NCBI GenBank assembly: GCA_964404855.1
Contig: CAYOLO010000001.1
Location: 530,736 to 594,735, forward strand
Reading direction: 5' to 3'
Origin: an uncultured Gammaproteobacteria bacterium
GTDB taxonomy: Bacteria > Patescibacteriota > Microgenomatia > CAYQLK01
Length of the DNA: 64,000 nt
Of the stretch, positions 5,150 through 56,166 are shown piece after piece. Made by a program: the position numbers and the translations under genes. Numbering within the stretch: position 1 is the first letter of the stretch; the number at the start of each line of letters is the position of its first letter. The notes under the pieces are model-generated. The model saw only the letters and a program-made list of their open reading frames with translations. It was not told where the DNA came from and did not search any database.

Positions 5150-5151
5150 AG

Positions 5152-18226: not shown

Positions 18227-18272
18227 GTTCTTTAACATCACCAAACAACTAAAAAGAAGGTAGGAAAGAAAA

Positions 18273-19610: not shown

Positions 19611-19620
19611 TGCGATATGG

Positions 19621-19659
19621 GGTCGTAGTTGAGTAAAATCAACTGCGGCCCTTTTTTTT
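19621..19659 (+). terminator. intrinsic terminator
   Basis: 12-bp stem (GGUCGUAGUUGA/UCAACUGCGGCC, with G-U pairs) followed by a T8 run. Confidence 0.6.
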
Positions 19660-19699
19660 GACCAATACAAAATTAGACTGTTGTTTATTCCTTAAAAGT

Positions 19700-20530: not shown

Positions 20531-20726
20531 GCCCTAAATTATAGCAGTATGATTTCTCAATGATTGTTTTACTGGACAAGTTCATTGAGTTTTATGTGTT
20601 ATTATGAGCTACAAAATTAAGGAAATTTAGGGATGGTGTAATTGAGTCGGAAATGAACTTTAAAACAAATGATCCACAGTGGAATTAATTGCCGCCAAGT
20701 GAAGATGTTAGGTTAAGGAGAAGGAC

Positions 20727-21296: not shown

Positions 21297-21315
21297 CAAA
21301 AAGATGACGAAGTTA

Positions 21316-21347
21316 AGGCGTCCACAAACAAGTGGGCGTCTTTTTTT
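21316..21347 (+). terminator. intrinsic terminator
   Basis: GGCGUCCAC...GUGGGCGUC hairpin followed by a T7 run. Confidence 0.55.
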
Positions 21348-21499
21348 AGCTTTTTTCTAATCCTTTTTAGAGAATAGCTTATAATTTTAAAATCACAATA
21401 TTATTGACAAACTATTCCAAGTATGCTAAATATGTTCCTCAAGAAGAAAGAAAGGATTGTTGGGACAGCTAGTCTAGTGACACGAAAGTGTCCAAAGGT

Positions 21500-21573
21500 G
21501 CAAGTGTGGTCCAATGGAAGGGTGTCGGTCTCCAAAACCGAAGATAGGGGTTCGATTCCCCTCACTTGTGCCA
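21500..21573 (+). tRNA. tRNA-Trp (anticodon CCA)
   Basis: Hand-folded cloverleaf. Acceptor GCAAGUG/CACUUGU. Anticodon loop CUCCAAA. T-arm AGGGG-UUCGAUU-CCCCU. Discriminator G. 3' CCA is encoded. Confidence 0.85.
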
Positions 21574-21650
21574 AAACACATAAGCGTTCGAGTCTGTCGA
21601 GCCAACAACGAAGCGGGAGTTATAGCAACTACCTATTTGACCTTCTGAGC

Positions 21651-21686
21651 GCCCAGTAGTTGATTTCAACTGCTGGGCATTTTTTT
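21651..21686 (+). terminator. intrinsic terminator between tRNA-Trp and trpS
   Basis: 12-bp stem GCCCAGUAGUUG/CAACUGCUGGGC with a 4-nt loop, followed by a U7 run. Confidence 0.7.
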
Positions 21687-21738
21687 AGCTCTTTAACACC
21701 ACCAACAACAAATTCAAAATTGCAAAGGACAAGGAAAG

Positions 21739-23271
21739 ATGATCAATCTAGGCGTGGAACCGATGCCGTTGGAGCTCGCTCGTTTAAGGCTAGATGGTCT
21801 TGACGGCGAGATTATTACGCTAGTCGCTGCTCGACTGAAAATGGTGCAGCGTGACAGCGTTTTTCTGCAGAAGCAGATACAAGATCTGGTTAATTTGGGC
21901 ATGAGCCCAGGTTTTGCAGAAGCCTATTATCGTCTTCTGACGGAAGAAGGATTGAGGTCTCAGTTCGAGACACAGGACGTTGGGCAACTGGACGAGGTTT
22001 TTCAGCTCAACGAAATCGACCGCCAGCTTCTGGCTTTGGTTGTGGAGAGGATGGATATTTCCATCGCTTTAACCAAGACCAAACTGAACAACAACATCGC
22101 CATCGTTCATCCTGAACGGGAAGAGGCAGTTCTTCAAGGTCGTGCAGAGAAAGCTCAGAATCTGGGAGTTAACGCTGACTTCACGAAACGTTTGTTCCGC
22201 CTCCTCATGGATGAGGGTGTGCGAATACAACGGGAAGTGTGGCAAACGTCAACCCTCAAAAAAAGGATTCTGACGGGAGTACGTCCAACTGGACCGCTGC
22301 ACCTTGGTCATTATGTCGGTGCTCTGAAAAGTTGGCTTGAGTTTCAAGAGACTTACGAGTGTCTTTTTCTCATCGCTGACTATCAGGCACTGGGAAGCCA
22401 CATCGATAAGCCGGAGCTGATCCGAGACTCTGTCTTCCAGGTCACACTTGACTGGTTGGCTGTCGGTCTCGATCCCAACGCGTCGTCGTTCTTTGTTCAG
22501 AGCTACATTCCGGAGCATGCTGAGCTTGCACTGCTGCTTAGTATGCTGATTCCCTGGAAACGGCATATTGGCAACCCGACACTCAAAAGCGAAATGGCAG
22601 ACATGGAGTCTGAACATAACGCCATGAGTCTCGGATTCGTCAATTATCCCGCTAGTCAAGCGGCCGATATTCTTCTAATGAAGGGCGATCTGGTCCCTGT
22701 AGGTGAGGATCAGCGTCCGCACATCGAGGAAACTCGGCGAGTGGCACGGGAATTCAATCGACGGTACGGCGAAAACCGTACTATCTTTCCAGTTCCGAGA
22801 ATTTACACTGGAGAAGTATCGCGATTGGTGGGTCTGGATGGTGATGCGAAGATGAGCAAAAGCAAGGGCAACACCATTGATTTGCGTGATGACCCTGAAA
22901 CAGTTCGAAAGGCCGTAATGCGGATGTTCACCGACTCAACCCGTCTCCGCGCGACCGATCCTGGTCACGTGGAGGGAAATCCAGTCTTCATCTACCACGA
23001 TATCTTCAATCCTGACGTGGATGAAGTTGCAGACTTGAAGGCGCGCTATGTTCTCGGCAAGGTCGGCGATGTTGAGGTGAAGGTCAAATTGGCTAAAGCC
23101 CTCAACCAGATGCTCGATCCTATCCGCGAGCGGCGTGCGTACTTCGAGGCGCATCCAACACAAGTAAAGGATGCGCTGATTGCAGGCACAGATCGGGCAA
23201 GGAAAATTGCCGAAGAAACAATGAGAGAGGTTCGCGAAGCGATGCGCATCACGCGCTACGCCGAAGGTTAA
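21739..23271 (+). CDS. trpS: tryptophanyl-tRNA synthetase with ~180-aa N-terminal extension (two AroQ chorismate-mutase-like helical repeats)
   Basis: C-terminal ~330 aa carries HIGH (TGPLHLGH) and KMSKS (KMSKSKGN) of class-I TrpRS. The N-terminus has LELARLRLDGLDGEIITLVAARLK and IDRQLLALVVERM...HPEREEAVL...RLFRLLMDEGVRIQRE. SD AAGGA. GC-rich. Confidence 0.8.
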   Translation: MINLGVEPMPLELARLRLDGLDGEIITLVAARLKMVQRDSVFLQKQIQDLVNLGMSPGFAEAYYRLLTEEGLRSQFETQDVGQLDEVFQLNEIDRQLLALVVERMDISIALTKTKLNNNIAIVHPEREEAVLQGRAEKAQNLGVNADFTKRLFRLLMDEGVRIQREVWQTSTLKKRILTGVRPTGPLHLGHYVGALKSWLEFQETYECLFLIADYQALGSHIDKPELIRDSVFQVTLDWLAVGLDPNASSFFVQSYIPEHAELALLLSMLIPWKRHIGNPTLKSEMADMESEHNAMSLGFVNYPASQAADILLMKGDLVPVGEDQRPHIEETRRVAREFNRRYGENRTIFPVPRIYTGEVSRLVGLDGDAKMSKSKGNTIDLRDDPETVRKAVMRMFTDSTRLRATDPGHVEGNPVFIYHDIFNPDVDEVADLKARYVLGKVGDVEVKVKLAKALNQMLDPIRERRAYFEAHPTQVKDALIAGTDRARKIAEETMREVREAMRITRYAEG

Positions 23272-23310
23272 CCCTGACTCAATCGCTCTAGGGCCACAAG
23301 TAGCAGTGAT

Positions 23311-24390
23311 GTGATTTTGTGGCCCTTTTTCTTGAAAGGAAAAACGGTGAAAAAATCCATAGGGGGATGGCTCAATTCAGTAGCGGTTTTGGCGGTAATA
23401 TCCGGATTCGCTGCCGGTATTTACAGCTTGTCTGACACCCATGTGGTTGTCAGGTATTTCACTGACTCGACAGACAAAACAATCGGGTCATTGATCTACG
23501 TCGTCGTCGGTTCTTGGATCGGCTGTCTCTTATTTTTGCCTCAAGGGCAATTTCTGGGGCGCTGGCTAAGCCGTGATCAATTCCAGGGATGGCAAAGGCC
23601 TCTCGGAAGGGATTGGTTGTATGTTTGTGGCGCTGGTTTTACCGGAGCCGGAGCAACCTTTTTCTATCTTTTAGGTTTGAGCCGCTATGGCCCATCGCGA
23701 GTAGTGGTACTTTCCTCTGCGGTGCTGGTCTTGCTGCTCATGCTTGATTTTGTTAGGAGGAGGATAGATCTGTCCATGACTTTTCCAGCCTCAATCGTTT
23801 TCTTGGGAATACTATTGTCGAGTATTAACTTCGAGGATGGTATCAAGATCTCGGTAGGGCTGATTCTAATCGTGCTGATTGCACATAACTTTCTGTACGT
23901 GATCTCTATTTGGTTTTTCCAGGCTGGATCACGACGAATGGACTCAATCAATTTCACCTTCTGGCGATTTCTGTCTTTCGCAGTCTTTGCCACAGTCTTT
24001 GTCGTAATTTGGGTCGTTGTCGCCGGTAAGGTTGGAATTTTCCAGGATGTTCTTTTTGGGGGATTTACCGGTGCGCTGCCCTTTATTCTTTTTACTATGA
24101 TCTTTGGGTTCCTTGAGGTTGTCTTAGAATCTCAAGCTCGAAGAGACGGTGGAAAGATGTCAATGGTGAGCTTTCTAAAGCAGAGTGCCATCATTCCGGC
24201 GATGTTTTTGACCTACCTGTTGAACTGGATCTGGGTGGGGTCCCTCGGTGACGTTGCAACTGATACTCAATCGGTTGTGATCAGAGTCGGTGCAGCAGCG
24301 ATTGTTCTCTTGGGACTTTACCTCTTGACCAGACGAAAGCTGGTTGAGGAGCAGGAAATAGAAAGCGAGGAGATATTAGTCGTCGTTTAG
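23311..24390 (+). CDS. 10-TM integral membrane protein, possible DMT/EamA-type transporter
   Basis: Hydrophobicity pattern of two 5-TM halves. GC-rich. 40 nt downstream of trpS. Confidence 0.45.
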   Translation: MILWPFFLKGKTVKKSIGGWLNSVAVLAVISGFAAGIYSLSDTHVVVRYFTDSTDKTIGSLIYVVVGSWIGCLLFLPQGQFLGRWLSRDQFQGWQRPLGRDWLYVCGAGFTGAGATFFYLLGLSRYGPSRVVVLSSAVLVLLLMLDFVRRRIDLSMTFPASIVFLGILLSSINFEDGIKISVGLILIVLIAHNFLYVISIWFFQAGSRRMDSINFTFWRFLSFAVFATVFVVIWVVVAGKVGIFQDVLFGGFTGALPFILFTMIFGFLEVVLESQARRDGGKMSMVSFLKQSAIIPAMFLTYLLNWIWVGSLGDVATDTQSVVIRVGAAAIVLLGLYLLTRRKLVEEQEIESEEILVVV

Positions 24391-25552: not shown

Positions 25553-27628
25553 TTATTCATAACGCATTGCGTTAAGCGCAGAAATTTTGGTGGCACGACG
25601 AGCTGGGTAAATTCCGGTTACTACTCCGACAAGTAAGGATAAAATTACAATAAAGAACACAAAAGTTGTTGGGATAACAGCAATATCAATAAATCCAACA
25701 CCTTTTGAAATGGCAACAATCGAAATAATTACACTGAGCAATTTACCAATAGTAAATCCAAACATTACTCCTAATACTCCACCAAAAAACCCCATGATCA
25801 TTGATTCTGTAAGAAATAATTCCTTAACTTCTTTAGACTTCATTCCCATGGCTTTCATAAGCCCCACTTCTCTGGTTCTCTCGAGTAGTGAAACGGTTAA
25901 GGTGTTAAACATTCCTAATGCTGCCACAGCTAGCGCAACCATACCTAGTAAGGCAAGGACTGTGCGAACTGTGGCAAATAAGGAGTTAATTTGTTCAACA
26001 GTGTCAGCTACCGATCTAGTGTTAAAACCCATGGCTTCAATTTGTTTTCTAATCTTTGGTAAGACATTTTGGTTTTCGGCGACAATTTTTATTTGTGAGT
26101 AGTTTTCAATCCCCAGCGATCTTAGGTCAATAAAAGGAACGTAAAAAACTGGAGATTTTTCATCAGGTGTTACACCAACGATTGTGTAATCTGCAGGTAC
26201 AGACTCAATTTTTTCTGTCGCGTCTGCGAGCAGATTACCTACAACTACGAATGATGAAGAAAAAGTTTTACCAACCGCTTCAGTTTCGACGATACCTAAA
26301 ACTTTTAACATCGCTCTATTTACAACGGCTTGTCTTACTGCATTAGTACTTAGTGGTACTGTTTTGGTTTTTTGATTACTAAGGGCGGCTGCCTCTGAAG
26401 CAATAAGCGCAAGTTCTAAGTCTGCTGCACTGGTTGACTCGCTTGGTGATACGATTGTTGTTGTTGAAGCAGATGAAGTTGATTCACCCAGAACTTGACT
26501 AAGTGTAACTAGATCTGAGCCGAAGGTGCGAACATTAACTTGCGCAAAATAACCTTCTAGTTGTTTTTGTTTACCATTATCTTGTGTCACTATGTACTGA
26601 CCATCAATACAATCTGGATTTTTAGTGTCACAGATTTTCTTGTCCCAAACATAAACACTGGCTTTTATCCATTTGCCTAGCAATTGGCCGTTAGATTCTG
26701 TTCCGCTTGTCCCGTCTTTATTATCAGGGTAACTCCCTCCCCAAAAATATTGTCCTTTTTGATTACCTTCAACTCGTTTGGTGTATCCGATGATTGGGGA
26801 TGTTTTGTCTGGCTTGGATCTAACTTTGATCCAGATTGATGGTTCAATTTCAAAATCTATATCACCGATTAGTTGTCCAGATTTTGCAGAAGTTGTGTTG
26901 ACTCCAGCCACTTCAGGGCTTTGTTTTGGAAGACGACTGACAGGCTTACTTAAATCGTTACTCTCAAAGATTTTACCCTGAATGGGTTTGATAGCACTTT
27001 GACTTAAGTATTCACTGGTAACTCCGTAGACGGCCATATCTGAAATGGAGTTTTGAAAGTTAACTCTCCCGACGACTGCAATTTGGGGTAACACATCCTT
27101 AATATCATTGATAGATTTAAATTCCGTAATTGTCTTGTCGGTAATTTTAAGATTACTTCCTGATGCGACAGTTACATCAGCCTGTTTCATTTCTTCTAAT
27201 CTGGCGACTCTACCAACCACGAGATCTTGTACGCCGTATCCAAGTGAAACTAAAAATACAATTGCGCCTATACCAAGCGACATTCCCCCGACTGTGATTG
27301 TGGTTCGTGATCTTTTGACCCTCATGTTTCTGAGTGCCAGTTCAATCAACATTATTCTATTAATACTGTTACTGTCAGACTTGCGATGAAAACTTAGAAT
27401 TTTTCGATAAATTTTTGACAATGGGTTTCGAAATGCTCTTTCAATCGGTCTTGGAAAGAATCTAAATGATCCAATATGGTCCAGAATTAACCCAGAAATA
27501 TAGGTGACTAACAATATCGTGAATGTAATTGTTTCCCAAGTCCACACAACAAAAAAATAATGAACATAAAGCGGAAGATGTTTAATTATTTTTATAAAAA
27601 TTGATGGTCGAGGCAGGGGTAATCTCAT
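25553..27628 (-). CDS. ABC transporter permease, MacB/FtsX family, with enlarged extracytoplasmic domain
   Basis: N-terminal TM, ~420-aa extracytoplasmic region and a C-terminal FtsX 3-TM module ending ...GIYPARRATKISALNAMRYE. Start overlaps the ATPase stop (ATGA). Confidence 0.8.
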   Translation of the reverse strand: MRLPLPRPSIFIKIIKHLPLYVHYFFVVWTWETITFTILLVTYISGLILDHIGSFRFFPRPIERAFRNPLSKIYRKILSFHRKSDSNSINRIMLIELALRNMRVKRSRTTITVGGMSLGIGAIVFLVSLGYGVQDLVVGRVARLEEMKQADVTVASGSNLKITDKTITEFKSINDIKDVLPQIAVVGRVNFQNSISDMAVYGVTSEYLSQSAIKPIQGKIFESNDLSKPVSRLPKQSPEVAGVNTTSAKSGQLIGDIDFEIEPSIWIKVRSKPDKTSPIIGYTKRVEGNQKGQYFWGGSYPDNKDGTSGTESNGQLLGKWIKASVYVWDKKICDTKNPDCIDGQYIVTQDNGKQKQLEGYFAQVNVRTFGSDLVTLSQVLGESTSSASTTTIVSPSESTSAADLELALIASEAAALSNQKTKTVPLSTNAVRQAVVNRAMLKVLGIVETEAVGKTFSSSFVVVGNLLADATEKIESVPADYTIVGVTPDEKSPVFYVPFIDLRSLGIENYSQIKIVAENQNVLPKIRKQIEAMGFNTRSVADTVEQINSLFATVRTVLALLGMVALAVAALGMFNTLTVSLLERTREVGLMKAMGMKSKEVKELFLTESMIMGFFGGVLGVMFGFTIGKLLSVIISIVAISKGVGFIDIAVIPTTFVFFIVILSLLVGVVTGIYPARRATKISALNAMRYE

Positions 27629-28458
27629 GAGGTTGTCGTTGTTGCTGTTGGATTATTGTCTTTTGGTTTGGCTTGTTCTGGAAGATTAGTGACTGAATCC
27701 TTGTCGCGCAAAGAAACTTTTAGACGTTTGCTCTTAAGGCTGCCTCCCAGTTTGGATTTTTGGTCGCCGTGGAGTTTTTCTATTATTTGCCCATCGAGCA
27801 TACGAACGGCAGTTTTGGCAAATTTCATATATTCCAAGTCATGAGTGACCATAATAATAGTTTTACCTTGATTTTTGTTGACATCGTATAAAAGCTGCAT
27901 CATTTCTTGACCAGATTCGTAATCAAGATTGCCAGTAGGTTCGTCGGCGATAATAATTTTAGGGTCATTAATTAATGATCTGGCAAGAGCAATCCTTTGT
28001 TGTTGTCCGCTACTAAGTTCTGTGGGATAGTAGTCTGCCCAATCTTGCATTGAAACGCTTTTGAGCACCTCAACAGCTTTTTGATAGGCTTCTGCTTTTT
28101 CATGTCCTAGTAGCATTAGTGGAAATCCGACGTTTTCGGCAACTTTTAGTGATTTGATCCAGTTCGGCTGTTGATAAACCATACCAACAAGTTGTTTGCG
28201 TATTGTTGACCTGTCGTCTTCGGTCGTGGATGTATACATATCACTACCAGAGAACATGACTTTGCCTGTAGTTGGTGATTCAAGGCCGAGGATAATGTGA
28301 AGTAATGTTGATTTTCCACAGCCAGAGGGTCCAAAAATAATCATAAAATCGCCATCATCCACCTCCAAGGTTACGCTTTTTAATACTTGAACATCTTGCA
28401 TTCCAACCTTAAAAACTTTGACGATATCGGTAGCTGTAATAATTTTTTTGGTTTCCAT
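27625..28458 (-). CDS. ABC transporter ATP-binding protein (MacB/LolD-like)
   Basis: Walker A GPSGCGKST, signature LSSGQQQR, Walker B IIADEPT. Basic low-complexity C-terminal tail. Confidence 0.85.
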   Translation of the reverse strand: METKKIITATDIVKVFKVGMQDVQVLKSVTLEVDDGDFMIIFGPSGCGKSTLLHIILGLESPTTGKVMFSGSDMYTSTTEDDRSTIRKQLVGMVYQQPNWIKSLKVAENVGFPLMLLGHEKAEAYQKAVEVLKSVSMQDWADYYPTELSSGQQQRIALARSLINDPKIIIADEPTGNLDYESGQEMMQLLYDVNKNQGKTIIMVTHDLEYMKFAKTAVRMLDGQIIEKLHGDQKSKLGGSLKSKRLKVSLRDKDSVTNLPEQAKPKDNNPTATTTTS

Positions 28459-28460
28459 AT

Positions 28461-31400
28461 TTAGTTAGTTAGTCCTCCTAGGAATCCAAATATTTGACTA
28501 AGGTTGCTGATAACAAGATTTAGTGCGTTATCAGTTGCCTTGGGTGTGATTGTGACAGTGTCGATGGAATTACCAACATTAGCAGCTGAGTCTTTTGATA
28601 ATGCTCTTAAGTGATAAACCTTCGATGGTGATAATCCAGATATAACAACTAAATGGTTGGTTGTCCTTGAAGTGTCCTCTTGAGTTTTTTGAGAATATGT
28701 CGTGCCTGTTCCCTCACCAAATTCGACTTGGCTGGTTGATGCCTCATCGGTGTTCCAGCTGATAACAAGTTGGGCTGTCGCTTCTTGATTATTGTTGCCT
28801 GCCGTAGTTGACCCTTCAATGTTAAGTTCCGTAATTTGAGGTGCTCTGGTGTCTGTAGCAGTTGTGACCTTTTGAGGTTCAGAGACTGCTTCGTTGCCTG
28901 CTTTGTCTCTGCCTTTGACCAGAAGTGTGTAGTTGGTTTGAGGAAGCAGGTTTTTGATTATCATTTTGTGTTCTCCGGTAATTAAGGCTATGTTGATTTC
29001 GTCTTTGGCATCCGATGGGGAGTTTTCTGGATAGTAAGTGACGATAGATGAAGTATCAGTATTAGTAGACCATGTGACGAGCAAGGTCGATTGGGCTGTT
29101 CCATTGACTTGCTGTACTCTAACATTGGCAATTTTGGGTCTAGGAAGAGTTTCGAAACTGAGAATATTTCCTTCATATTCAGCTGACTCTGTGTCTAGGG
29201 TGTTAATCTTGTAAAAATACTTTGTACCGTCTTCTAGTTCTTCTAGCTCGGTATTGTAAGTGGTTGAAACAGTCGAAGTCGAAATTTCTTTCACTCCGCC
29301 AAATGCTGAGGTTTTGCCATAGTAAATTTTGGCTTTGCTTGCACCAGTAACCGTAAATTCCAGAATCGCAGAGGTAAGAGAGGAGGATTTTACTTTTGGA
29401 TCGGTAACCGTTGGAGCGGGTTCGGTGGTAAAAGTTTTTTCCGCACTAAATCCGGTATTTCCATCTTCGTCAGTCCACTTGGCTTTGTAGTAGTAAGTGG
29501 TACCTGGCGTTAGATTGGTGATATTGATTGTGTGAGCGGTCACTTGGGTTGAATTACTAGGTTCTTCAGAAAAATATGATCCAGATGCTGTTCCGTAGCT
29601 GACTTTGGAGTCGCTGGTTCTGTCCGTTGACCAGGTAATCGTTGCTTTTTTGGTAGTTACACTGGTACTGACTGGACCAGATGATAGCGCTGGGGCGTCG
29701 GTGAATTTGCCGGTTGGTATTAAATCAACGGCTGAAGTGTAAGCACCACAATTGCTAACACTGTCACAGGCTCTGACTTTGTAATAATGAGCTGCTTGCG
29801 TGAGTCCCGTGTCGACATAAGCAATACCAGATGTTGTGGCGATTTCAGTATAGGTAACATCGTCAGTTGAGTGAAAAATTTCGTAATTTTCAATCCCAGA
29901 TCCAACATCGCTTGGAGCTTCCCAGCTGATTGCAAGTTTCCAAGAGCTTGTGCTTTTGACAGAAACGTCTGCAATATCAATGTTACCTGGAATGCCTGGT
30001 GCTGAAGTGTTGGCGGTAAAAGTTACAGAAGCATAAACTCCGTAGTTAATGACACCTCCAAGGTCTTCGGGATTTTTTGCAGAAACATAAAACGTATTTA
30101 ATCCTTGTTGTGTGGCAAACGAGTCAGCGGAAAGAGACGTTGCCCCTGCACTGGTGAAGGTACAAGAATTTTCTGATGGTAGCGTGTTGACTGTATAGCA
30201 ATATGTCAGGTCGGATGCGCTACCTGAGTAGCTACTTGGTGCCTGCCATGAGAAGCCAAAAGAGTTGGTGGTGTTGGTCGATGGGGTGGCGGTAAGCAAC
30301 TGAGGAGCTGAAGGTCCTTCGCCTGCGAAATAATAGTTGACGGTTACACAAGCGCTGGCGGTATTGCCCGCATTATCGACGGTTCTTAGGTAGAAAATAT
30401 TTGCACTGCTTCCTTCGAGGTATGCTGCATCAGGAATGTTGACGGAGTTGGAGGTAGTAGAGGTCCATCCGGAAACACTGCTGCAGTTGGCGCTACTTGC
30501 GCCGGTTTGATATTGGTAACCAAACGATCCGCCGCTTAGTCCGGAGTGTGCGTCACTTGCTCCGCCTTCGGCGCCGGCGGCTGCCCAAGAGAATGTAAAG
30601 TCATTGGTTGTTGCGAATCCTGCTGGATTGACCGATACAAGCGATGGGTTGGTTGGAGATGTGGAGTCGTATTTATATATGAAGGCAGCGTAAATACTTG
30701 AGGTGTTGCCAGCATTATCTGCAGATTTGATTCTCAGGTAGTATGTGGTTCCGCTACTCATTCCACTTGCTGTATAAGTTGTGCCTGCTTGAAAACTGCC
30801 AGCAGTTTGAGGATCAGCGGTATTGTCGGTTCCGTAATATACGTAATATCCGGAAACACCAGATCCGCCGGTGTCTGTTGCGCCACTCCAACTAAAGTAA
30901 GGACCTGTGTGTTTGTACCAAGTGTTAGTTGTAATTGAGGACCCACCTGATTGGTTGAGTGCCGTTAGTGTGTCGGGTGGTGTTGGCGCTGTGCTATCGG
31001 CTGTGGCGGTAAGAGTGACCGAATTAAGGGTAACTAGTTGATTGCCGTTTCCGTCTAGTACGCCTTGCCAGACAAAACCTCCTGTGCTTACTGGAAATGT
31101 GGAGATATTGGTGTTAATCACAGCTGCTGTATTTGTTTGACTTGTTGAGTTACTGGTAACCCATCCCGAGTTGTAATATTTCCAAGTTGATCCGTTGTCG
31201 TTACTAAGTCTGTAGGTGATTGTGCCTCCGTTTGTAGTTTCGTCTGCAGTAAATCCATCCCAAGAAAGAATTCCAGAAGTTCCATAAGCTGTAGTTGGTT
31301 TGACTGTTTGAGCTGAAGCGGTATATGGGGTGGTATTGAACTCGGTTCTTCTGATATTGCTGATTCTGACTTCGTCGATTCGGCCGTCAAGAAAACCCTG

Positions 31401-34400
31401 ACCAATCCCAGTTTCGTTGCCGCCAAACTTCGTACCAATTAATACTGGATGTGCTGTATCAAGAAGTGTTAAAGATGTTGATAAAGAATTATCAAGCACC
31501 CCGTCGATATACAATCGCATTGTTGTTCCGTCGTATGTAGCTGCAATGTGATGCCAGTTAGTATCCTGAGAAGATGTTGTTGATTGCAAAACAGAGTTGT
31601 TTCCGTAAGCCCAAATAGTGGCATCTGCGTTTGCGGTGTCGCCAAGACCTGCATAAAGCTTGCCTTTATAAACTGACATAGAGGCTACACTTTCATTGAC
31701 TGTGGCCCAACCATTATTGAGGCTATCTCCACCGACTTTAACCCAGCTTGAATCATTCCAGCGCCAGACTTCACCATCACCAGCGGTTAAACCTAAGCCG
31801 GCATATAGATCGCCATTGTAAACAGTTAAATTACGGACTCTTTCGTATGTTGCAGCTGTCCAACTATTATTAAGCCCATCGCCACCGACTTGTGTCCAAA
31901 TTCCACTTGAGGTAGTGTATTTCCAAACTTCTGCGTCGTCAGCGGTAAGGCCAAGTCCAACATATAATCCACCATTGTAGGGGACTAATTGTTCAATTCT
32001 TTCATAAACAGTGTTCCAACTGGAGTTAAGGCCGTCGCCACCCATTTTGGTCCAGCCACTAGTTACTGTGCAACTCCCAATTGTACAGGTCCAAACTTCA
32101 GCATCGCCGGCTGTTATACCGAGACCAACATATAAACTATTTCCATAGACTGCCATACTAATAACTTGTTCAAAACCAGCTGCCCAGCTTTGTCCGCCGG
32201 TGCCTGTGCCATCTCCTCCAATTTTGGCCCAAGTGTCAGCTGTGCCATCGTATGCCCAAACTTCGGCTTCTCCGGCGGTGTCGCCAAGACCAGCAATTAG
32301 TTTGTCGCCGGCAACAGCCAGGGATCGGACATTGTCATAGTTAGTTGTCCAGCCTAACTTAAGACTGTCTCCGCCGATTTGAGACCAGACTGTACCGTTC
32401 CATTTCCAAACTTCGGCTTCGTTGGCTGATAATCCTAAAGCAACATACAGATCTCCGCGATAATCGATCATATGGTTAACGATTTCGTAGGTGTTAGCTG
32501 CCCAGCTAGAGTTGAGACCTTGCCCGCCAATCCTTGTCCAGCTTGTACCGTCATATCGCCAAACTAAAGCATTACCTGCTGTACTTAATCCAGTGCCAGC
32601 ATATAAATAGCTACCGGAAATTGTCATTGTTTCAACACTTTGCAGGTTGGTATAACCCCAAGAGTTGTTGATATAGTTACCACCGATTCTGTTCCATATT
32701 GAACCATTGAATCGCCAAACTTCACCGGATGTGGCTGTACCCTGAAGTCCGACATAAACGTTACTATCAAAAACAGTGATTGTTCTGATATTGGTGTGAG
32801 TGTTGGTAAAACCAAGAGCAGTTCCGTCGCCAGTTCCGTCACCACCGATTTTTGCCCAGGTTGTACAAGTTGCAGCAGTACAACTCCAAACTTCGTTGTC
32901 TCCAGCCGTATTACCTAATCCAGCATAAAGCGTTGATCCTGAAATTGTCACCGTCCAGACTTGTTCATAGGTTGTGTCTGCCCAACTAGAGTTAGTTCCG
33001 TCACCACCGATTTTTGTCCAGGTGGTACAACTACTTGTAGTGTCGCATCTCCAAACTTCGGCTTCTCCGGCGGCACTGTTTCCAATACCTGCAAAAAGAT
33101 AAGTCCCATCATTAGCAAGAGAAGTAACAATTTCATAAGTTGCGTCTGCCCAACTAGAGTTAATCGCATCTCCGCCTATTCTGGTCCAAGTTGAACCTCC
33201 CCATCGCCAAACTTCAGCATCGCCAGCACTATCTCCCAATCCAATGTGTAATGTGGTGCCAACGACCGTCATACTCCTGACGGCTTCGAAGTTGGTGTTC
33301 CAGCCTGAGTTCAGGTTGTCTCCGCCGATTTTTGTCCAACCAGATGTAACAGTACAGCTGCCGATTGTACAGCTCCAAACTTCGGCATCGTTTGCGCTTG
33401 ATCCTAGACCGGCGTAGAGTGTGGTCCCTGAAACGGCTAAAGCAGAAACATATTCGTATGTATTAGTTGCCCAGCTTTGGCCAGCTGATCCGCTTCCATC
33501 TCCACCGATTTTTGTCCAGGTTGAGCCGTTGTATTGCCAAACTTCACCTTCCCCTGCAGTAAGTCCTAGTCCAACAAAAAGGTTAGTTCCGTCAGTTGCC
33601 ATAGCATAAACTTCGTCATAGGTGGCATTGGTCCAGCTAGAGTTGATTCCATCTCCGCCAATCATGGACCAGACTGTACCATCCCACATCCAGACTTCTG
33701 CATCAGACTGCCCATTACCTAATCCAACATACAAGTCACCACTAATTTCGACTGATGATTCCACAATTAATTTACCGTTAAGATCCCAGCTTGCACTGCC
33801 GTTCATTTCGGTTCCAGTTGATATTCCGCCAGCCACCTGTGTCCAGCTGTCAGCATTACTTGGTGCTAATTCGTAGGTAAGTTTACCTTGAACTCTATCG
33901 TAGTAGAGCTGGTACTCGCCTTTATCGATAATGCCTTGGCGCTGTTGATTTGAGTTAGCGGAATATGCAGTATCCAGCTTGACCCAGGCTTCGAGGGTGT
34001 GAGACTGTGACAAAGATAGTGAGGTTGAGTCAGATACTGAGACATTACTTAGTGCCCCATTAAATTCGATTGAGTTATTGAGGTTCCCAGTAGTGTATGT
34101 TGCATTACTTGCTGTGGCTGCATTGGCATTTGAACTAGAATCGACAGGATTGCCAGAACTTTCATCAAAGTGAAAAAGAGCGGCAGTATTTGCGTCTGAG
34201 GCGTAGTTTTGGACTGCAAGTTTGGCACTATTGCCGGAAACGGTGATCATATTAGAGTCAGAAAGAGTGTAATCTCCCCCAACTGAAAAATCCCATTCTT
34301 GAGTAAGATCAGAGGCAAAAATTTTAGGAATAATTGTGTTGAGAGTTGTGTAAGCTCCAAATCCAAAACCAATACCAATACAAATTACTCCAAAAAGGTT

Positions 34401-34598
34401 GAACTGCCATTTGGCAATCGTAATTTTTTTCGTAAACAGAGTCTTGATTGTTTGAGGGTTTTTATTGATAACTGCGTTGCCAAGTTTTGGGATTAGGAAG
34501 AATGTTTTTGAAAAATGGTTTTTGGTACTAATTTTGAGGCCAAAAGTTTTGGACTGGGCTGGTTTATTTTTAATGTGGTTTATCGAGTCGTTAGTCAT
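28461..34598 (-). CDS. giant (2045 aa) signal-anchored cell-surface protein with LamG-like domains, a tandem-repeat array and FN3 domains
   Basis: TM at aa ~67-89. ConA/LamG_3-like region (ALFHFDE...TLEAWVKLD...QGIIDKG). ~14 tandem repeats of VW.W.G..W..IGGDG.NSSW...YE.V......LY.GLG.TAGDAE. Second LamG-like segment (...RLYIDGVLDNS...FLDGRIDEVRISN). At least 6 FN3-like modules. Confidence 0.8.
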   Translation of the reverse strand: MTNDSINHIKNKPAQSKTFGLKISTKNHFSKTFFLIPKLGNAVINKNPQTIKTLFTKKITIAKWQFNLFGVICIGIGFGFGAYTTLNTIIPKIFASDLTQEWDFSVGGDYTLSDSNMITVSGNSAKLAVQNYASDANTAALFHFDESSGNPVDSSSNANAATASNATYTTGNLNNSIEFNGALSNVSVSDSTSLSLSQSHTLEAWVKLDTAYSANSNQQRQGIIDKGEYQLYYDRVQGKLTYELAPSNADSWTQVAGGISTGTEMNGSASWDLNGKLIVESSVEISGDLYVGLGNGQSDAEVWMWDGTVWSMIGGDGINSSWTNATYDEVYAMATDGTNLFVGLGLTAGEGEVWQYNGSTWTKIGGDGSGSAGQSWATNTYEYVSALAVSGTTLYAGLGSSANDAEVWSCTIGSCTVTSGWTKIGGDNLNSGWNTNFEAVRSMTVVGTTLHIGLGDSAGDAEVWRWGGSTWTRIGGDAINSSWADATYEIVTSLANDGTYLFAGIGNSAAGEAEVWRCDTTSSCTTWTKIGGDGTNSSWADTTYEQVWTVTISGSTLYAGLGNTAGDNEVWSCTAATCTTWAKIGGDGTGDGTALGFTNTHTNIRTITVFDSNVYVGLQGTATSGEVWRFNGSIWNRIGGNYINNSWGYTNLQSVETMTISGSYLYAGTGLSTAGNALVWRYDGTSWTRIGGQGLNSSWAANTYEIVNHMIDYRGDLYVALGLSANEAEVWKWNGTVWSQIGGDSLKLGWTTNYDNVRSLAVAGDKLIAGLGDTAGEAEVWAYDGTADTWAKIGGDGTGTGGQSWAAGFEQVISMAVYGNSLYVGLGITAGDAEVWTCTIGSCTVTSGWTKMGGDGLNSSWNTVYERIEQLVPYNGGLYVGLGLTADDAEVWKYTTSSGIWTQVGGDGLNNSWTAATYERVRNLTVYNGDLYAGLGLTAGDGEVWRWNDSSWVKVGGDSLNNGWATVNESVASMSVYKGKLYAGLGDTANADATIWAYGNNSVLQSTTSSQDTNWHHIAATYDGTTMRLYIDGVLDNSLSTSLTLLDTAHPVLIGTKFGGNETGIGQGFLDGRIDEVRISNIRRTEFNTTPYTASAQTVKPTTAYGTSGILSWDGFTADETTNGGTITYRLSNDNGSTWKYYNSGWVTSNSTSQTNTAAVINTNISTFPVSTGGFVWQGVLDGNGNQLVTLNSVTLTATADSTAPTPPDTLTALNQSGGSSITTNTWYKHTGPYFSWSGATDTGGSGVSGYYVYYGTDNTADPQTAGSFQAGTTYTASGMSSGTTYYLRIKSADNAGNTSSIYAAFIYKYDSTSPTNPSLVSVNPAGFATTNDFTFSWAAAGAEGGASDAHSGLSGGSFGYQYQTGASSANCSSVSGWTSTTSNSVNIPDAAYLEGSSANIFYLRTVDNAGNTASACVTVNYYFAGEGPSAPQLLTATPSTNTTNSFGFSWQAPSSYSGSASDLTYCYTVNTLPSENSCTFTSAGATSLSADSFATQQGLNTFYVSAKNPEDLGGVINYGVYASVTFTANTSAPGIPGNIDIADVSVKSTSSWKLAISWEAPSDVGSGIENYEIFHSTDDVTYTEIATTSGIAYVDTGLTQAAHYYKVRACDSVSNCGAYTSAVDLIPTGKFTDAPALSSGPVSTSVTTKKATITWSTDRTSDSKVSYGTASGSYFSEEPSNSTQVTAHTINITNLTPGTTYYYKAKWTDEDGNTGFSAEKTFTTEPAPTVTDPKVKSSSLTSAILEFTVTGASKAKIYYGKTSAFGGVKEISTSTVSTTYNTELEELEDGTKYFYKINTLDTESAEYEGNILSFETLPRPKIANVRVQQVNGTAQSTLLVTWSTNTDTSSIVTYYPENSPSDAKDEINIALITGEHKMIIKNLLPQTNYTLLVKGRDKAGNEAVSEPQKVTTATDTRAPQITELNIEGSTTAGNNNQEATAQLVISWNTDEASTSQVEFGEGTGTTYSQKTQEDTSRTTNHLVVISGLSPSKVYHLRALSKDSAANVGNSIDTVTITPKATDNALNLVISNLSQIFGFLGGLTN
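31570..33850 (-). repeat. tandem coding repeats (~156 nt / 52 aa, about 14 copies) inside the giant gene
   Basis: Periodic protein motif VW(R/K)W.G..W..IGGD..NSSW....YE.V......LY.GLG.TAGDAE read from the translation. Coordinates are approximate. Confidence 0.6.
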
Positions 34599-34812
34599 AA
34601 AGTCAACCCAATAAGATTTGGGCAGATTTAATGTAGGAAATGTTAAAAAAATACAAAGAAGCCCAACACAACCCTACATAATTGTGTCGAGAAATCTACG
34701 CAAAACTCTATCTCCATTATATATACTCGTCCTAGCTGATGTCTATGTTATTCCAATAATTTAAAGATATTTTTGTATTACTTGTAATTAATTTTGTTAG
34801 TATTTAAAAGTT

Positions 34813-35994
34813 ATGTTCAAAAATAATCGTAATTTATTAGTTATCGCCGTAATTGCTTTTGTTAATGCATTAGGTTATGGGATTATTATTCCAATAATGT
34901 ATAGCTATTCTCAAAAGTTTGGACTATCTGATTTTGAAAGTGGTTTGTTGTTTGCTCTTTTTTCTTTTTGTTCTTTTATTTCAACACCCTTTATTGGCAG
35001 ATTATCAGACAAATATGGTCGCAAGCCACTTCTTATGGTCTCAATTACAGGTACTGCGGTCTCTTTTTTTATGGCGGCTTTTGCACCTAATGCAATTTTT
35101 TTGTTTTTAGCTCGGGCATTAGATGGAATTACAGCAGGTAATATTCCAGTAGCAGCTGCAGTGATTTCTGACACAACAGAACCAAAGGATAGGGCTAAAG
35201 GGTTTGGAATAATTGGTGCGTCTTTTGGTTTTGGCTTTGTGTTTGGCCCTGCTATTTCTGCTTTAACCTTAGGATTTGGTGACCATGTACCATTTTTAAT
35301 AGCAGGAATAATTTCAGTCGGTGCAGTAATCCTAACTGGAATTATTTTGCCAGAAACGAATAAACACATTGGAGAGGTAGCCAAGGGGAGAATTTTTGAC
35401 ATGGTCAAATTAGTTAAAGCACTAACTGATGACAAGGTCGGGCTGACATTATTAATTTCGTTTTTGATTAATTTGGCATTTGGAATGTTTATCTTTGCAT
35501 TCCAGCCATTTAGTGTAAAAGTGATAGGTTTAGAAGCAACACAGATTTCAATTATTTTTACCGTTTTTGGTGTAGTAGGTTTAATTGCGCAAGCTTTAAT
35601 TGTTGCTCGTGTTACTAAAAGATTTGGAGACAAAATTACTTTGAGATCTTCACTTTTTTTGTCGGCTATAGGGTTTGTCGGTTATATGTTTACAAGTGAC
35701 TTGTACGGCTTAATTTTTGTTTCAATTATATTAGCTCTAGCTAATTCGTTTAATGCCCCACTTATTCAAACTATTCTTTCAAAAGAAACAGATGCAAAAA
35801 GCCAAGGTACGATTCAGGGGCTGAATGCAGCATATGTAAGTCTTGGAACGGTTTTTGGTCCAATTATTGCTGGAGTGATTGCAACTTTAGCTATTCCATT
35901 GCCTTTTCTGGCAGGCGGTATAGTTATGTTCGTCAGTTGTTTGTTGTCGTTTAAGGTGCTTAAAAAGGGTGTGGGTAAAGAGTCAGCCTTTTGA
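34813..35994 (+). CDS. MFS transporter
   Basis: 12 TM. Motif A GRLSDKYGRKPLL. Confidence 0.85.
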   Translation: MFKNNRNLLVIAVIAFVNALGYGIIIPIMYSYSQKFGLSDFESGLLFALFSFCSFISTPFIGRLSDKYGRKPLLMVSITGTAVSFFMAAFAPNAIFLFLARALDGITAGNIPVAAAVISDTTEPKDRAKGFGIIGASFGFGFVFGPAISALTLGFGDHVPFLIAGIISVGAVILTGIILPETNKHIGEVAKGRIFDMVKLVKALTDDKVGLTLLISFLINLAFGMFIFAFQPFSVKVIGLEATQISIIFTVFGVVGLIAQALIVARVTKRFGDKITLRSSLFLSAIGFVGYMFTSDLYGLIFVSIILALANSFNAPLIQTILSKETDAKSQGTIQGLNAAYVSLGTVFGPIIAGVIATLAIPLPFLAGGIVMFVSCLLSFKVLKKGVGKESAF

Positions 35995-53518: not shown

Positions 53519-53519
53519 T

Positions 53520-54323: not shown

Positions 54324-54324
54324 T

Positions 54325-55245: not shown

Positions 55246-55247
55246 AA

Positions 55248-56165: not shown

Positions 56166-56166
56166 T

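Follow-up and report, generated by a model that had tools for sequence, protein, structure and literature searches.

[quoted passage not shown] The protein is read from its sequence as a globular head, in which 14 repeated blades, modelled as two 7-bladed beta-propellers, appear to be nested in a loop of one LamG domain, followed by a stalk of FN3-like modules, and its gene is followed by those of an ABC transporter.

The gene and its distribution

The giant gene is a single ORF of 2045 aa (28461..34598, minus strand), as originally predicted, and the ATG at 34598 is its sole canonical in-frame start. The possibility that the ORF is fragmented or a pseudogene in related genomes, which had been raised together with the original prediction, was checked, and the gene was found to be intact, with one uninterrupted frame of 1800-2114 codons in 58 of the 65 testable related loci. 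The promoter-like site upstream of it (Table 1) agrees with the consensus at 11 of 12 positions, which is a consensus match only, and the next gene upstream is divergent and codes for an MFS transporter (34813..35994, plus strand). No DNA-level tandem array was found for the blade-coding repeats, and the repeat is therefore old and seen at the protein level only.

The family was found in at least 172 species-level genomes, a lower bound for the signature used, and nearly all of these are Patescibacteria; the source of the window protein is likewise a CPR bacterium and, as had been expected, one with a small genome. The window belongs to a contig of 660 kb, and a BipA from the same 90%-identity cluster bears the name Candidatus Curtissbacteria. 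The tables for Southlakia epibionticum list no Laminin_G_3 or LamG protein, so that this cultivated epibiotic Saccharibacterium, at least, seems to lack the family, and epibiosis in general probably does not depend on it.

Table 1. Features of the giant gene and its operon (window coordinates; residues of the giant protein).
Feature	Residues	Position	Strand	Basis or remark
Promoter-like site TAGACA, 18 nt, TATAAT		34716..34745	-	~120 nt upstream of giant-gene start codon
Basic cytoplasmic n-region	1-65	34404..34598	-	pI 10.7
Hydrophobic h-region	66-86	34341..34403	-	Kyte-Doolittle scan
c-region, Pro at -5, putative signal peptidase I site between I-F-A and S-D	87-95	34314..34340	-	
Conserved SDLTQEWDFS...AKLAVQNY, leading into LamG fold	96-139	34182..34313	-	Column conservation 0.62
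Predicted N-terminal half of single LamG (Laminin_G_3) jelly roll	140-246	33861..34181	-	Pfam PF13385, AF2
Predicted propeller 1, blades 1-7	247-626	32721..33860	-	Cys pairs 410/415, 518/524, 573/578
Predicted propeller 2, blades 8-14 and closing strand	627-1001	31596..32720	-	Cys pair 838/843
Predicted C-terminal half of same LamG (...WHHIAATYDGTTMRLYIDGV...IDEVRISN)	1002-1095	31314..31595	-	Pfam
Beta-sandwich with single Asp-box SNDNGSTW (1132-1139)	1096-1202	30993..31313	-	Motif search; AF2 pLDDT ~90
Eight FN3-like modules	1203-2018	28545..30992	-	Pfam; AF2
Amphipathic C-terminal helix ALNLVISNLSQIFGF	2019-2045	28464..28544	-	Conservation, hydrophobic moment
ABC ATPase (277 aa), most like LolD/FtsE/DevA		27625..28458	-	Pfam ABC_tran 115.8 bits
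MacB-type permease, 691 aa		25553..27628	-	MacB_PCD and FtsX domains

Architecture of the head

On the whole giant protein, Laminin_G_3 scores 57.7 bits, above the Pfam cut-off. Two distant pieces of the protein match the model, of which the first (residues 184-256) covers positions 5-71 of the 151 in the PF13385 profile and the second, in the C-terminal half, positions ~56-146. When residues 249-995 were removed in silico, one Laminin_G_3 hit was obtained over positions 5-146 of 151, with 90.2 bits, against 20.2 and 63.4 bits for the pieces scored apart. These profile matches point to one LamG domain, split by an insert of about 750 aa that holds the 14 blades, and its N-terminal half has a pLDDT of 82-94 in the AF2 model. 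The arrangement LamG - repeats - LamG, with two separate domains, which was the original reading, is not supported, given the complementary profile positions and the single full-length spliced hit; the segment ...YIDGVLDNS...IDEVRISN that it described is present at residues ~1030-1085.

The repeats comprise 13 full units of 50-57 aa and one N-terminal unit without its first strand. A blade HMM built from the repeats of the window protein gives 14 hits in that protein, in keeping with the ~14 tandem repeats that had been counted, and 14 hits in 54 of the 58 orthologs. The consensus of 811 blades, VWRWNGSTWTKIGGDGLNSSWAANTYEEVYSLTVYGGNLYAGLGNTAGDAE, agrees with the ~52-aa consensus proposed earlier, and its three Trp and GG pair are almost invariant. 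Blades of the window protein share 23-60% pairwise identity, and across deep lineages they are ~46% identical to one another. The Cys pairs noticed earlier in some repeats are found at the four places given in Table 1. Blade 1 lacks the first strand of the unit, which is found as the closing strand TIWAY (994-998) and in sequence terms would complete blade 1, while blades 7 and 8 (the latter with GGNYINNSWGY) are divergent and are kept so in homologs.

The AF2 head model (pLDDT 82.5, pTM 0.69) contains 56 propeller strands, i.e., 14 four-stranded blades, and it can be superposed with complete 7-bladed propellers at 2.0-2.8 A, which bears out the suggestion that the repeats are beta-propeller blades. 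The insert is accordingly modelled as two such propellers; both this 7+7 division and the way in which the two halves of LamG pack are based on the number of strands, the search hits and the confidence values.

Searches of Pfam, NCBIfam and PDB sequences gave no match to the repeat region even at E<=10, and the earlier view that it is no known Pfam repeat holds in that no Pfam model matches the blades directly. To call the repeat novel was too strong, since the region aligns with Rax2 C-terminal propeller and DUF5122 proteins, and the blade, as judged by these alignments, is a divergent relative of the Rax2/DUF5122 type.

Stalk, tail and N-terminal segment

The Asp-box beta-sandwich behind the head matched no Pfam family. 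It is followed by eight FN3-like beta-sandwich modules, where at least six had been predicted, which start at about residues 1203, 1313, 1428, 1532, 1634, 1727, 1819 and 1917, each behind a Pro-rich linker. FN3-type Pfam similarity was found in seven of the eight scanned singly, mostly below family cut-offs, and fn3 on the whole protein scores 63.9 bits, above the cut-off. The AF2 stalk model has a pLDDT of 84.7 and includes the terminal helix, predicted at 2025-2036 with low pLDDT. The C-terminal tail is conserved in all 58 orthologs and ends in ..L..(I/V)FG(F/L/Q), with FGF in the window protein; this conserved helix was absent from the original prediction. A motif search detected neither LPXTG nor RTX motifs, in agreement with the earlier statement that an LPXTG-type anchor is missing. 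Beyond the four Cys pairs of the blades there are three in the stalk, so that all 14 Cys behind the signal segment sit in close pairs, and the mature protein (~206 kDa, pI 4.3) is acidic while its n-region is basic, all of which fits the extracytoplasmic surface protein that had been proposed.

The hydrophobic segment at residues 66-86, formerly described as a TM anchor, is the only one in the giant protein above 1.5 in the Kyte-Doolittle scan, and to this extent the description stands. That the protein is signal-anchored is doubtful, given that the orthologs keep a signal-peptidase-type site: the segment looks like a cleavable signal peptide and not an anchor because a conserved (I/V/A/T)-x-Ala site follows it, and the signal sequence would probably be cleaved after Ala95, which is kept in at least 90% of orthologs. 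A semi-automatic scan, mildly biased in that the nearest Ala was taken as -1 and candidates with a small or aliphatic -3 were preferred, placed the putative site in 55 of 58 sequences, where -3 is always I/V/A/T/L/S; 34 of these 55 have Pro or Gly near -5. The n-region is weakly conserved apart from the juxtamembrane KKITIAKWQFN, in place of which the Saccharibacteria orthologs have a His/Trp-rich motif upstream of the h-region, and such conserved juxtamembrane motifs, odd in a peptide destined only for removal, suggest that the segment may remain in the membrane. Residues 96-139, conserved as they are (Table 1), reach a pLDDT of only 40-49 (AF2).

The ABC transporter operon

Downstream of the giant gene, and tightly coupled to it, lies a MacB-type ABC pair whose conservation is almost universal and which the original prediction did not mention. 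The ATPase gene starts 2 nt past the stop of the giant ORF, with its Shine-Dalgarno sequence AGGAGG inside the last codons of that ORF (LGG...), and overlaps the permease gene by ATGA. Every NCBIfam match of the ATPase is below its equivalog cut-off, and the permease has an extracytoplasmic insert of ~310 aa, with a single Cys pair, in addition to its MacB_PCD and FtsX domains. Where a locus includes enough DNA, the order is virtually always FN3 array, ATPase (at ~+2.9 kb) and MacB_PCD/FtsX permease. This synteny spans lineages from Saccharibacteria through to WWE3 and Microgenomates, whose proteins are 36-65% identical.

Division FtsEX was considered for the operon transporter and rejected, given that one locus (L087) has a separate, true FtsE/FtsX pair nearby. 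The standalone 7-blade homologs have no ABC neighbour, and the propeller as such therefore does not need the transporter.

Possible functions

The reading that we favour, to which we give somewhat less than an even chance, is that of a Sec-exported glycan-binding surface fibril working with a dedicated type VII ABC transporter. Sec would export the giant protein via its long N-terminal signal sequence, and the mature chain would fold into the head, behind which the Asp-box sandwich and the eight-FN3 stalk, estimated at roughly 30 nm, would lead to the short amphipathic helix (...L..IFGF). The conserved loops of the 14 near-identical blades, GGDxxNSxW and GxxxGDAE, could be purely structural; on the favoured reading we infer that they make a multivalent binding surface, most probably for a cell-surface glycan. 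In favour of such a binding role are the use of the same blade as the C-terminal module of phage host-specificity tail proteins and the ~46% identity that blades retain across deep lineages. The giant gene would be co-translated with the genes of its type VII (MacB/LolCDE-class) transporter, the presumed partner, which may keep the giant protein on the cell, by way of its C-terminal helix or of the signal segment, or may handle it mechanically.

An unlikely alternative, though the best of those considered, is that the protein is a structural component of the envelope, i.e., an S-layer-like canopy or spacer, whose heads tile or cap the surface and bind the cell's own envelope polymers, while the FN3 stalk fixes the distance from the membrane. 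Neither the length of the protein (about 1950-2110 aa) nor its number of blades varies much from one Patescibacteria class to another, and conservation is even along the whole ectodomain (0.62-0.68), with no hypervariable region. This uniformity across lineages with presumably different hosts argues against a host-specific adhesin and would suit a housekeeping role in the envelope just as well. In composition the protein is acidic, with much Thr, Ser, Gly and Asn and little Cys, as is typical of S-layer proteins, and its loci are often surrounded by genes for glycosyltransferases and polysaccharides. However, Pfam detected no SLH or other known S-layer domain, the signature occurs in the 172 or more genomes and not in all Patescibacteria, and the reuse of the blade as a phage receptor-binding module suggests recognition rather than lattice building.

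An adhesin role, as first proposed, is plausible. The version in which the N-terminal helix stays in the membrane and the protein binds host or substrate alone, with the ABC genes coding for an unrelated efflux pump that shares the transcript, is less probable still. The one hydrophobic segment with its basic n-region and the conserved residues directly before it would suit such an anchor, and LamG, propellers and FN3 are common adhesin parts. Against it stands the conserved (-3,-1) site behind the h-region, and the head would adjoin the membrane with the stalk pointing outward, which leaves the conserved terminal helix without a task. Synteny and translational coupling over so wide a range of lineages are hard to ascribe to chance linkage, and we do not think that the transporter is an unrelated pump.

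It is improbable that the double propeller is an extracytoplasmic sensor or substrate-capture device, which binds a soluble or surface ligand and passes the ligand or a signal to the MacB-type pump. Double-propeller sensor domains are known in hybrid two-component systems of Bacteroides, actinobacterial EsrA is described as sensing epibionts with a propeller on a stalk (bioRxiv 10.64898/2026.09.08.750141), and the ABC pair is an obligatory neighbour. Yet the neighbourhoods have no conserved signalling gene, be it a kinase, a regulator or another; kinase and regulator genes occur in a single locus (L002), and an eight-FN3 stalk exceeds the expected needs of a pump accessory.

Finally, a glycoside hydrolase or lyase with its active site in or between the propellers, like GH74 xyloglucanases, virginiamycin B lyase or CylK, is highly improbable, as identity to such enzymes is 8-14% with scores equal to those of non-enzymatic WD40 or integrin propellers, Pfam and NCBIfam give no catalytic family, and all 14 blades carry the same motif where a unique active-site constellation would be expected.

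Comparison with known systems

The blades are homologous to those of the bacterial Rax2 C-terminal propeller and DUF5122 ("delta-60 repeat") proteins (PF12768, PF17164; for example P0093, P0094, P0109, P0110), which are likewise long multi-blade arrays on secreted proteins. In BLASTP, the propeller region aligns with P0093 at 29% identity over 757 columns (E=4e-21), in the same ...LY.GG...W.G..W..LG... register. The window protein matches neither PF12768 nor PF17164 even at E<=10, whereas those Rax2-type proteins that were examined have a T9SS Por_Secre_tail but no Laminin_G_3 or fn3 Pfam hit, and the kinship gives no functional transfer.

The same blade family, at 41-47% identity, is found in phage host-specificity tail proteins (Phage-tail_3 and Rcc01698_C; P0042, P0046, P0049, P0053, P0054, P0062). 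For example, P0053 aligns with the window blades at 41% identity (E=1e-58), and its gene belongs to a siphovirus tail module, in which it comes behind the tape-measure and distal-tail genes. These proteins have one propeller, by size about one 7-blade unit (~370 aligned residues), placed C-terminally after conserved tail domains, where the window protein has two, and they are without LamG, FN3 stalk and ABC genes.

The best Foldseek matches to the head model are tandem 7+7 propellers (Elp2, Utp/SSU-processome subunits, Lgl2, GH74 OXG-RCBH and Bacteroides hybrid two-component sensor domains), all with 14 blades in two rings, which align over 780-970 columns with TM-scores of only 0.35-0.49 and ~10% identity. 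They belong to other blade families and other biology, and none is nested in LamG.

The operon transporter shares with the type VII ABC transporters (MacAB, LolCDE and FtsEX with EnvC/PcsB/CwlO) a LolD/FtsE-like ATPase and a MacB_PCD and FtsX permease, but misses all equivalog cut-offs. Transporters of this class work on their extracytoplasmic partners through mechanotransmission and not through transport across the membrane, and none of them is known to be paired with a propeller/FN3 protein of ~2000 aa.

A further parallel is EsrA of oral Actinobacteria, which is described as a beta-propeller on the cell surface, carried by 14 Ig-like repeats and sensing epibionts (bioRxiv 10.64898/2026.09.08.750141). 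EsrA differs in that its propeller is of the WD40 class, it belongs to the host in the interaction with epibionts, and it signals via MoxR, vWA and kinase genes and not an ABC transporter. Shared, as a matter of overall design only, are the secreted propeller head, the long stalk of Ig/FN3 type, the lack of LPXTG and the dependence on accessory cluster genes.

The three-gene cassette and its distribution

An extracytoplasmic protein of about 2000 aa is encoded in the window by a giant gene, and its plan of head (LamG domain and blades), stalk (FN3-like modules) and tail (C-terminal helix) is strictly conserved, as is the obligatory linkage of the gene to those of a type VII ABC transporter. 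The ORF was recovered exactly as the original prediction had placed it, with a sole canonical in-frame start, the ATG at 34598. The gene upstream is a divergent MFS transporter. A hairpin positioned downstream of the promoter-like site and ahead of the start codon (see the table) may represent a leader structure or have arisen by chance. The raised G+C content of the giant gene may reflect its Gly/Ala/Thr/Ser-rich composition.

Features of the window and their positions
Feature	Coordinates	Strand	Remarks
Several more glycosyltransferase genes	3602-6396, 52619-63689		ORFs around the gene of the 1365-aa protein
G+C-richer region	18000-24000		G+C 40-50%; most of the window is at 27-36%
Chorismate mutase type II domain, then tryptophanyl/tyrosyl-type class I tRNA synthetase domain	21739-23271	+	One ORF; an unusual fusion
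MacB-type permease gene	25553-27628	-	691 aa
ABC ATPase gene	27625-28458	-	Starts 2 nt past the giant ORF stop; overlaps the permease gene by ATGA
Giant gene region	28000-34000		G+C 42-47% vs 27-36% in most of the window
Giant ORF	28461-34598	-	2045 aa
Shine-Dalgarno AGGAGG of the ATPase gene	28461-28480	-	Embedded in the closing codons of the giant ORF (TTA GGA GGA, coding for L G G)
Residues 96-139 of the giant protein	34182-34313	-	SDLTQEWDFS...AKLAVQNY
12-bp hairpin and T-rich run	34662-34691	-	Between the promoter-like site and the giant gene start codon
Promoter-like site	~120 nt upstream of the giant ORF start	-	11/12 consensus positions
Large ORFs without a Pfam family	46578-48224, 56167-59459		Flank the glycosyltransferase region
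1365-aa protein, GT2 and GT4 glycosyltransferase domains	48529-52626	+	

A signature made of the last blade(s) and the C-terminal half of the LamG domain was searched for in one genome per species (185,579 genomes) and was found in 172 species, nearly all of them Patescibacteria, which are mostly Saccharibacteria but also include WWE3, Woesebacteria, Microgenomates, Moraniibacteriota and Paceibacterota. The few records under other taxon names, such as Gammaproteobacteria and Bdellovibrionales, are suspected to be labelling errors. Among the 80 loci fetched for comparison, 65 had enough flanking DNA, and in 58 of these the gene forms one uninterrupted frame of 1800-2114 codons, which rejects the possibility of a pseudogene or a fragmented ORF. 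Gene length is remarkably constant, and exactly 14 blade matches are present in 54 of the 58 proteins compared (the window protein and 57 orthologs), with 13 in the other four. Conservation of the ectodomain is even (0.62-0.68), blades being approximately 46% identical to one another and orthologous blades approximately 58%, and the most distant ortholog found, at locus L087, retains 36% identity.

One MAG (SRP285395_co1_424) carries a copy of the family on each of two separate contigs (loci L027 and L061), which may point to a second paralogue in some genomes or to a bin of mixed strains. Glycosyltransferase genes occur in several parts of the window (see the table), and one related locus (L001) also lies amid glycosyltransferase and polysaccharide genes.

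Two predicted propellers nested in one LamG domain

The giant protein as a whole scores 57.7 bits on Laminin_G_3 (PF13385; Pfam cut-off 27.6). The match is split in two, with residues 184-256 corresponding to profile positions 5-71 of 151 and the post-repeat piece to approximately 56-146, and the separate pieces score 20.2 and 63.4 bits. When residues 249-995 were removed in silico, a single match to positions 5-146 of 151 was obtained (90.2 bits, E=1.9e-25), and this continuous match of the spliced sequence indicates that the repeat region is inserted in a loop of one LamG jelly roll. Given this, the two LamG domains that had been read on either side of the repeats are better described as a single domain with a nested insert, and the same split is found in all the full-length homologs.

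The approximately 14 repeats described from the translation are real, and consist of 13 full units of 50-57 aa together with one N-terminal unit that is missing the first strand. An HMM built from the repeat units, which are 23-60% identical to one another, gives 14 matches in the window protein, and the lack of any tandem repeat at the DNA level in the giant gene implies that the blade array is old. In the AlphaFold2 model of the head (residues 95-1110, alignment of 25 sequences; mean pLDDT 82.5, pTM 0.69, with both LamG halves at pLDDT ~82-94), 56 beta-strands lie between the LamG halves, forming 14 four-stranded blades, and the suggestion that the repeats are propeller blades is thus upheld at the level of structure prediction. 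Full seven-bladed proteins superpose on this model at 2.0-2.8 A over 255-284 residues.

The insert opens with strand 2 of a blade (WTQVA) and closes with strand 1 (TIWAY, residues 994-998), which means, in sequence terms, that the chain leaves and re-enters the LamG loop within one blade unit, which is the "velcro" closure common in propellers. The insert is predicted to form two rings of seven blades, a reading that is based on three observations: a Foldseek search of the PDB with the head ranks proteins with tandem 7+7 propellers highest (Elp2, Utp proteins, Lgl2, GH74; 780-970 columns), homologs with the size and coverage of a single propeller of about seven blades exist, and blades 7 and 8 diverge from the rest as a pair, a feature kept in the homologs.

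The blade family and its relatives

Searches of Pfam, NCBIfam and the PDB by sequence returned nothing for residues ~260-1000, and hmmscan of residues 263-997 at E<=10 gave only two noise matches (CUT_C and YdjO) and none to a named propeller repeat (Kelch, WD40, BNR, PQQ, RCC1, YVTN/NHL or FG-GAP), in agreement with the earlier statement that the repeat was not recognised as one known to Pfam. The repeat is therefore new to Pfam by direct search, although not without relatives, given that it is homologous to proteins of the Rax2/DUF5122 type. A search of 5.8 billion proteins provided 143 relatives, the more distant of which are proteins that Pfam labels as Rax2 C-terminal beta-propeller and DUF5122 (PF12768/PF17164). 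The window protein itself has no direct match to these two profiles, and a homolog that is 54% identical to it (P0010) reaches 24.6 bits in the same test, below the cut-off of 28.8. Two relatives that score 77-78 bits on PF12768 (P0093 and P0109) are matched by the window protein in phmmer at E=7.5e-16 and E=5.4e-11, respectively, and a BLASTP alignment of the window region with P0093 (E=4e-21) keeps the blades in register across 757 columns, at 29% identity. On the basis of this homology, the blade is placed, from sequence comparison, as a divergent branch of the Rax2/DUF5122 lineage, which is not a well-known propeller family with a defined function.

The close family is small, with 1249 proteins at E<=1e-3 and just 108 at E<=1e-30 in an exhaustive phmmer search of 1.84 billion cluster representatives. 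The same blade makes up the C-terminal module of phage host-specificity proteins (Phage-tail_3 and Rcc01698_C), at 41-47% identity, and one blade-bearing phage protein is encoded in the tail module of a siphovirus, where the tape-measure and distal-tail genes precede it. Four other giant blade proteins (P0121, P0122, P0126 and P0133) have no informative extra domains, and no ABC neighbours were found for the standalone seven-blade homologs. One standalone homolog, of about seven blades (P0070, 416 aa; locus L086, 6001-7251, Logan SRR33270637), lies in a nonulosonic-acid-type sugar biosynthesis cluster with NeuB, CTP_transf_3, Epimerase_2, DegT aminotransferase and formyltransferase genes, a context that gives a weak hint of a tie between the blade family and surface glycans.

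N-terminus, stalk and tail

A Kyte-Doolittle scan finds a single hydrophobic segment in the giant protein, at residues 66-86, where an N-terminal TM anchor had been proposed; the segment was confirmed, but its role as an anchor is doubtful, since a signal peptidase I pattern follows it. In the orthologs, the hydrophobic segment is succeeded by Pro/Gly near -5, (I/V/A/T/L/S)-x-Ala and then (A/S/L)-(D/S/P)-D, with an invariant Trp approximately seven residues beyond. Ala95, the putative -1 residue, is kept in at least 90% of the orthologs, and in the 55 sequences scored, position -3 is always I/V/A/T/L/S, while Pro or Gly occurs near -5 in 34, in a semi-automatic scan that is mildly biased, as it took the nearest Ala as -1 and favoured small or aliphatic residues at -3. 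Given the agreement of this conserved c-region with the signal peptidase I pattern, the segment is more probably cleaved off as a signal peptide than kept as an anchor. Together, the h- and c-regions are long (~30 aa).

Conserved residues in front of the h-region count against cleavage, as such conservation would be odd in a discarded peptide. In the window's subfamily these residues read KKITIAKWQFN, whereas the Saccharibacteria orthologs (L007, L009, L011-L014 and others) have a motif rich in His and Trp, HHHxAxRPHxxLxxxxxWYxxWHxWxxHxxxH, immediately N-terminal to the hydrophobic segment, within the N-terminal ~60 codons and on the cytoplasmic side. Immediately after the putative cleavage site, residues 96-139 are well conserved yet modelled at pLDDT 40-49, and could fold only against a partner.

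The C-terminal half of the LamG domain is followed by a beta-sandwich of approximately 107 aa with a single Asp-box (SNDNGSTW), and then by the stalk, for which at least six FN3-like modules had been predicted and in which the AlphaFold2 model has eight sandwiches, starting at approximately 1203, 1313, 1428, 1532, 1634, 1727, 1819 and 1917, each preceded by a Pro-rich linker. The giant protein scores 63.9 bits on fn3 (PF00041; Pfam cut-off 25), and, when the modules are scanned singly, seven of the eight have FN3-type similarity, mostly below the family cut-offs, and one has none. The model of residues 1089-2045 has a pLDDT of 84.7 and a pTM of 0.38, a value that is expected for a beads-on-a-string arrangement. 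All 14 Cys residues after the signal segment are in close pairs, and the mature protein would be of ~206 kDa, with a pI of 4.3.

An amphipathic helix, ALNLVISNLSQIFGF, closes the chain and is predicted with low confidence at residues 2025-2036. All the orthologs have this tail, with the pattern ..A(T/S)Dx(A/V)Lx(L/I)(V/I)xxxLxx(I/V)FG(F/L/Q), either at the very end of the protein or close to it. Past FGF, the window protein continues with LGGLTN, and the DNA that codes for these residues, TTAGGAGGA..., serves the following gene as its Shine-Dalgarno sequence. The placement of this site in the tail codons probably accounts for the six residues by which the window protein outruns the ...FGF end of many orthologs. 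The reported lack of an LPXTG or sortase anchor holds, given that the loose matches are internal only (IPDAA at 1388, LPQTN at 1885) and that the C-terminus is the amphipathic helix.

The MacB-type transporter

The permease encoded downstream of the ATPase consists of a MacB periplasmic core domain, an insert of approximately 310 aa and an FtsX domain. The scores of the pair on ABC_tran (115.8 bits), MacB_PCD (51.3) and FtsX (63.8) are all above the respective cut-offs, which assigns it to the type VII class, and its nearest NCBIfam models are LolD/FtsE/DevA and LolCE/MacB, well under every equivalog cut-off. LolCDE and MacB proper were rejected on these scores (LolD 211.9 vs 307.75, lolCE 67.1 vs 362, MacB 67.8 vs 966), and so was the division FtsEX (FtsX models 29-35 vs 225-255). 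A separate FtsE/FtsX pair, with FtsX_ECD, lies near the ortholog of L087 and shows the operon transporter to be a dedicated paralogue, distinct from the FtsEX of cell division.

Almost all related loci whose downstream DNA is long enough, L087 included, keep the gene order: counted from the C-terminal half of the LamG domain, the FN3 array occupies +0.4 to +2.9 kb, the ATPase gene starts at approximately +2.9 kb, and the permease gene comes next. No conserved upstream gene was found among the related loci. Directly upstream of the ortholog in L087 (5144-9373, JGI 3300045006) lie a DPBB_1 (RlpA-like) gene, a second MacB-type ABC pair and the true FtsE/FtsX, making this region a cluster of three type VII ABC systems.

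The permease has a long form of ~690 aa, with the ~310-aa insert being extracytoplasmic and bearing one Cys pair (333/340), which is that of the window's subfamily, and a short form of ~390-410 aa, found in most Saccharibacteria. The window permease also has an N-terminal extension of ~100 aa, with an extra hydrophobic segment at 26-52, that aligns directly only in the closest relative (L008).

One search relative, P0023, was considered as a propeller-FtsX fusion, given that its last blade is joined to TM2 of the permease at the junction ...LYAGLG|MFNT..., within the shared motif (A/G)LGMF; a genuine fusion would have spoken strongly for a physical link. At its locus (L003, 9235-12283, GCA_041742135.1), the ORF upstream proved to be the N-terminal part of that gene in another frame, as the giant gene has a frameshift near its 5' end in addition to a deletion. 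P0023 is thus either a decaying copy or a deletion or assembly artefact, and provides no evidence for a physical fusion.

Possible functions

The head of the giant protein would bind something, given that LamG and propeller domains are typical binding modules, that the polar and aromatic loop motifs GGDxxNSxW and GxxxGDAE recur in each of the 14 blades, and that the blade is reused in phage host-specificity proteins. By analogy with Kelch-type blades, these two loops would lie on the same propeller face. The ABC transporter, in turn, is the putative functional partner of the giant protein, as the MacB/LolCDE/FtsEX class acts on extracytoplasmic partners by mechanotransmission, and there are two candidate contacts between them, the tail helix and the signal segment, both of which are conserved.

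A further step, which is considered improbable, would make the giant protein and the transporter an ABC-powered surface organelle of a new type in ultrasmall bacteria, in which the transporter grips the helix or the signal segment and moves the fibril, pumping no solute. ATP-driven mechanotransmission would, in that case, mount, extend, tension or release a lectin-headed fibril of ~30 nm that may serve in attachment to partner cells.

The main rival, which is kept alive here, is a structural, S-layer-like role, which is favoured by the even conservation and the fixed length of the protein across lineages with presumably different hosts. It is also favoured by the apparent absence of any LamG protein from the tables of Southlakia epibionticum, whose supplementary tables lack the terms Laminin_G_3 and LamG. 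The giant protein has no SLH or other known S-layer Pfam domain. A T1SS RTX adhesin was rejected, given that the protein has no RTX motif and that its neighbouring transporter is MacB-type. A sensor and an enzyme are weaker readings, given that conserved signalling genes are absent in the first case, and that, in the second, nothing catalytic is recognised by Pfam or NCBIfam and the fold matches have generic scores.

Significance and comparison with known systems

Patescibacteria (CPR) account for a large share of bacterial diversity, and their cultivated members are attached to other cells; to our knowledge, very little is known of their surface machinery besides type IV pili. The family is named in databases only as "LamG domain-containing protein" or "hypothetical protein", and no description of it was found in the full-text literature on LamG and propeller proteins of Patescibacteria and Saccharibacteria, Southlakia Tn-seq, type IV pili and CPR phage, which goes no further than the general notion that Patescibacteria encode concanavalin-like lectins with a possible part in attachment.

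What emerges is a three-gene cassette that is widespread and varies strikingly little, with its exact domain boundaries, tail motif and predicted cleavage site. All its parts are known folds, and what appears undescribed is the nesting of two propellers in a LamG loop, the conserved C-terminal helix, and the fixed pairing with a MacB-type transporter across the phylum. The nested two-propeller LamG is a useful case for domain-parsing and annotation pipelines. If the link with the transporter is functional, the mechanotransmission principle of FtsEX, LolCDE and MacAB would extend to the handling of giant surface proteins, and the cassette would offer CPR research a concrete candidate for a role in attachment or in the architecture of the envelope.

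In design, the nearest analogue among the papers found is EsrA, a surface protein of oral Actinobacteria in which a propeller is carried on 14 Ig-like repeats and which is part of an epibiont-sensing pathway (bioRxiv 10.64898/2026.09.08.750141), although EsrA differs from the giant protein in both its propeller class and its partner genes.
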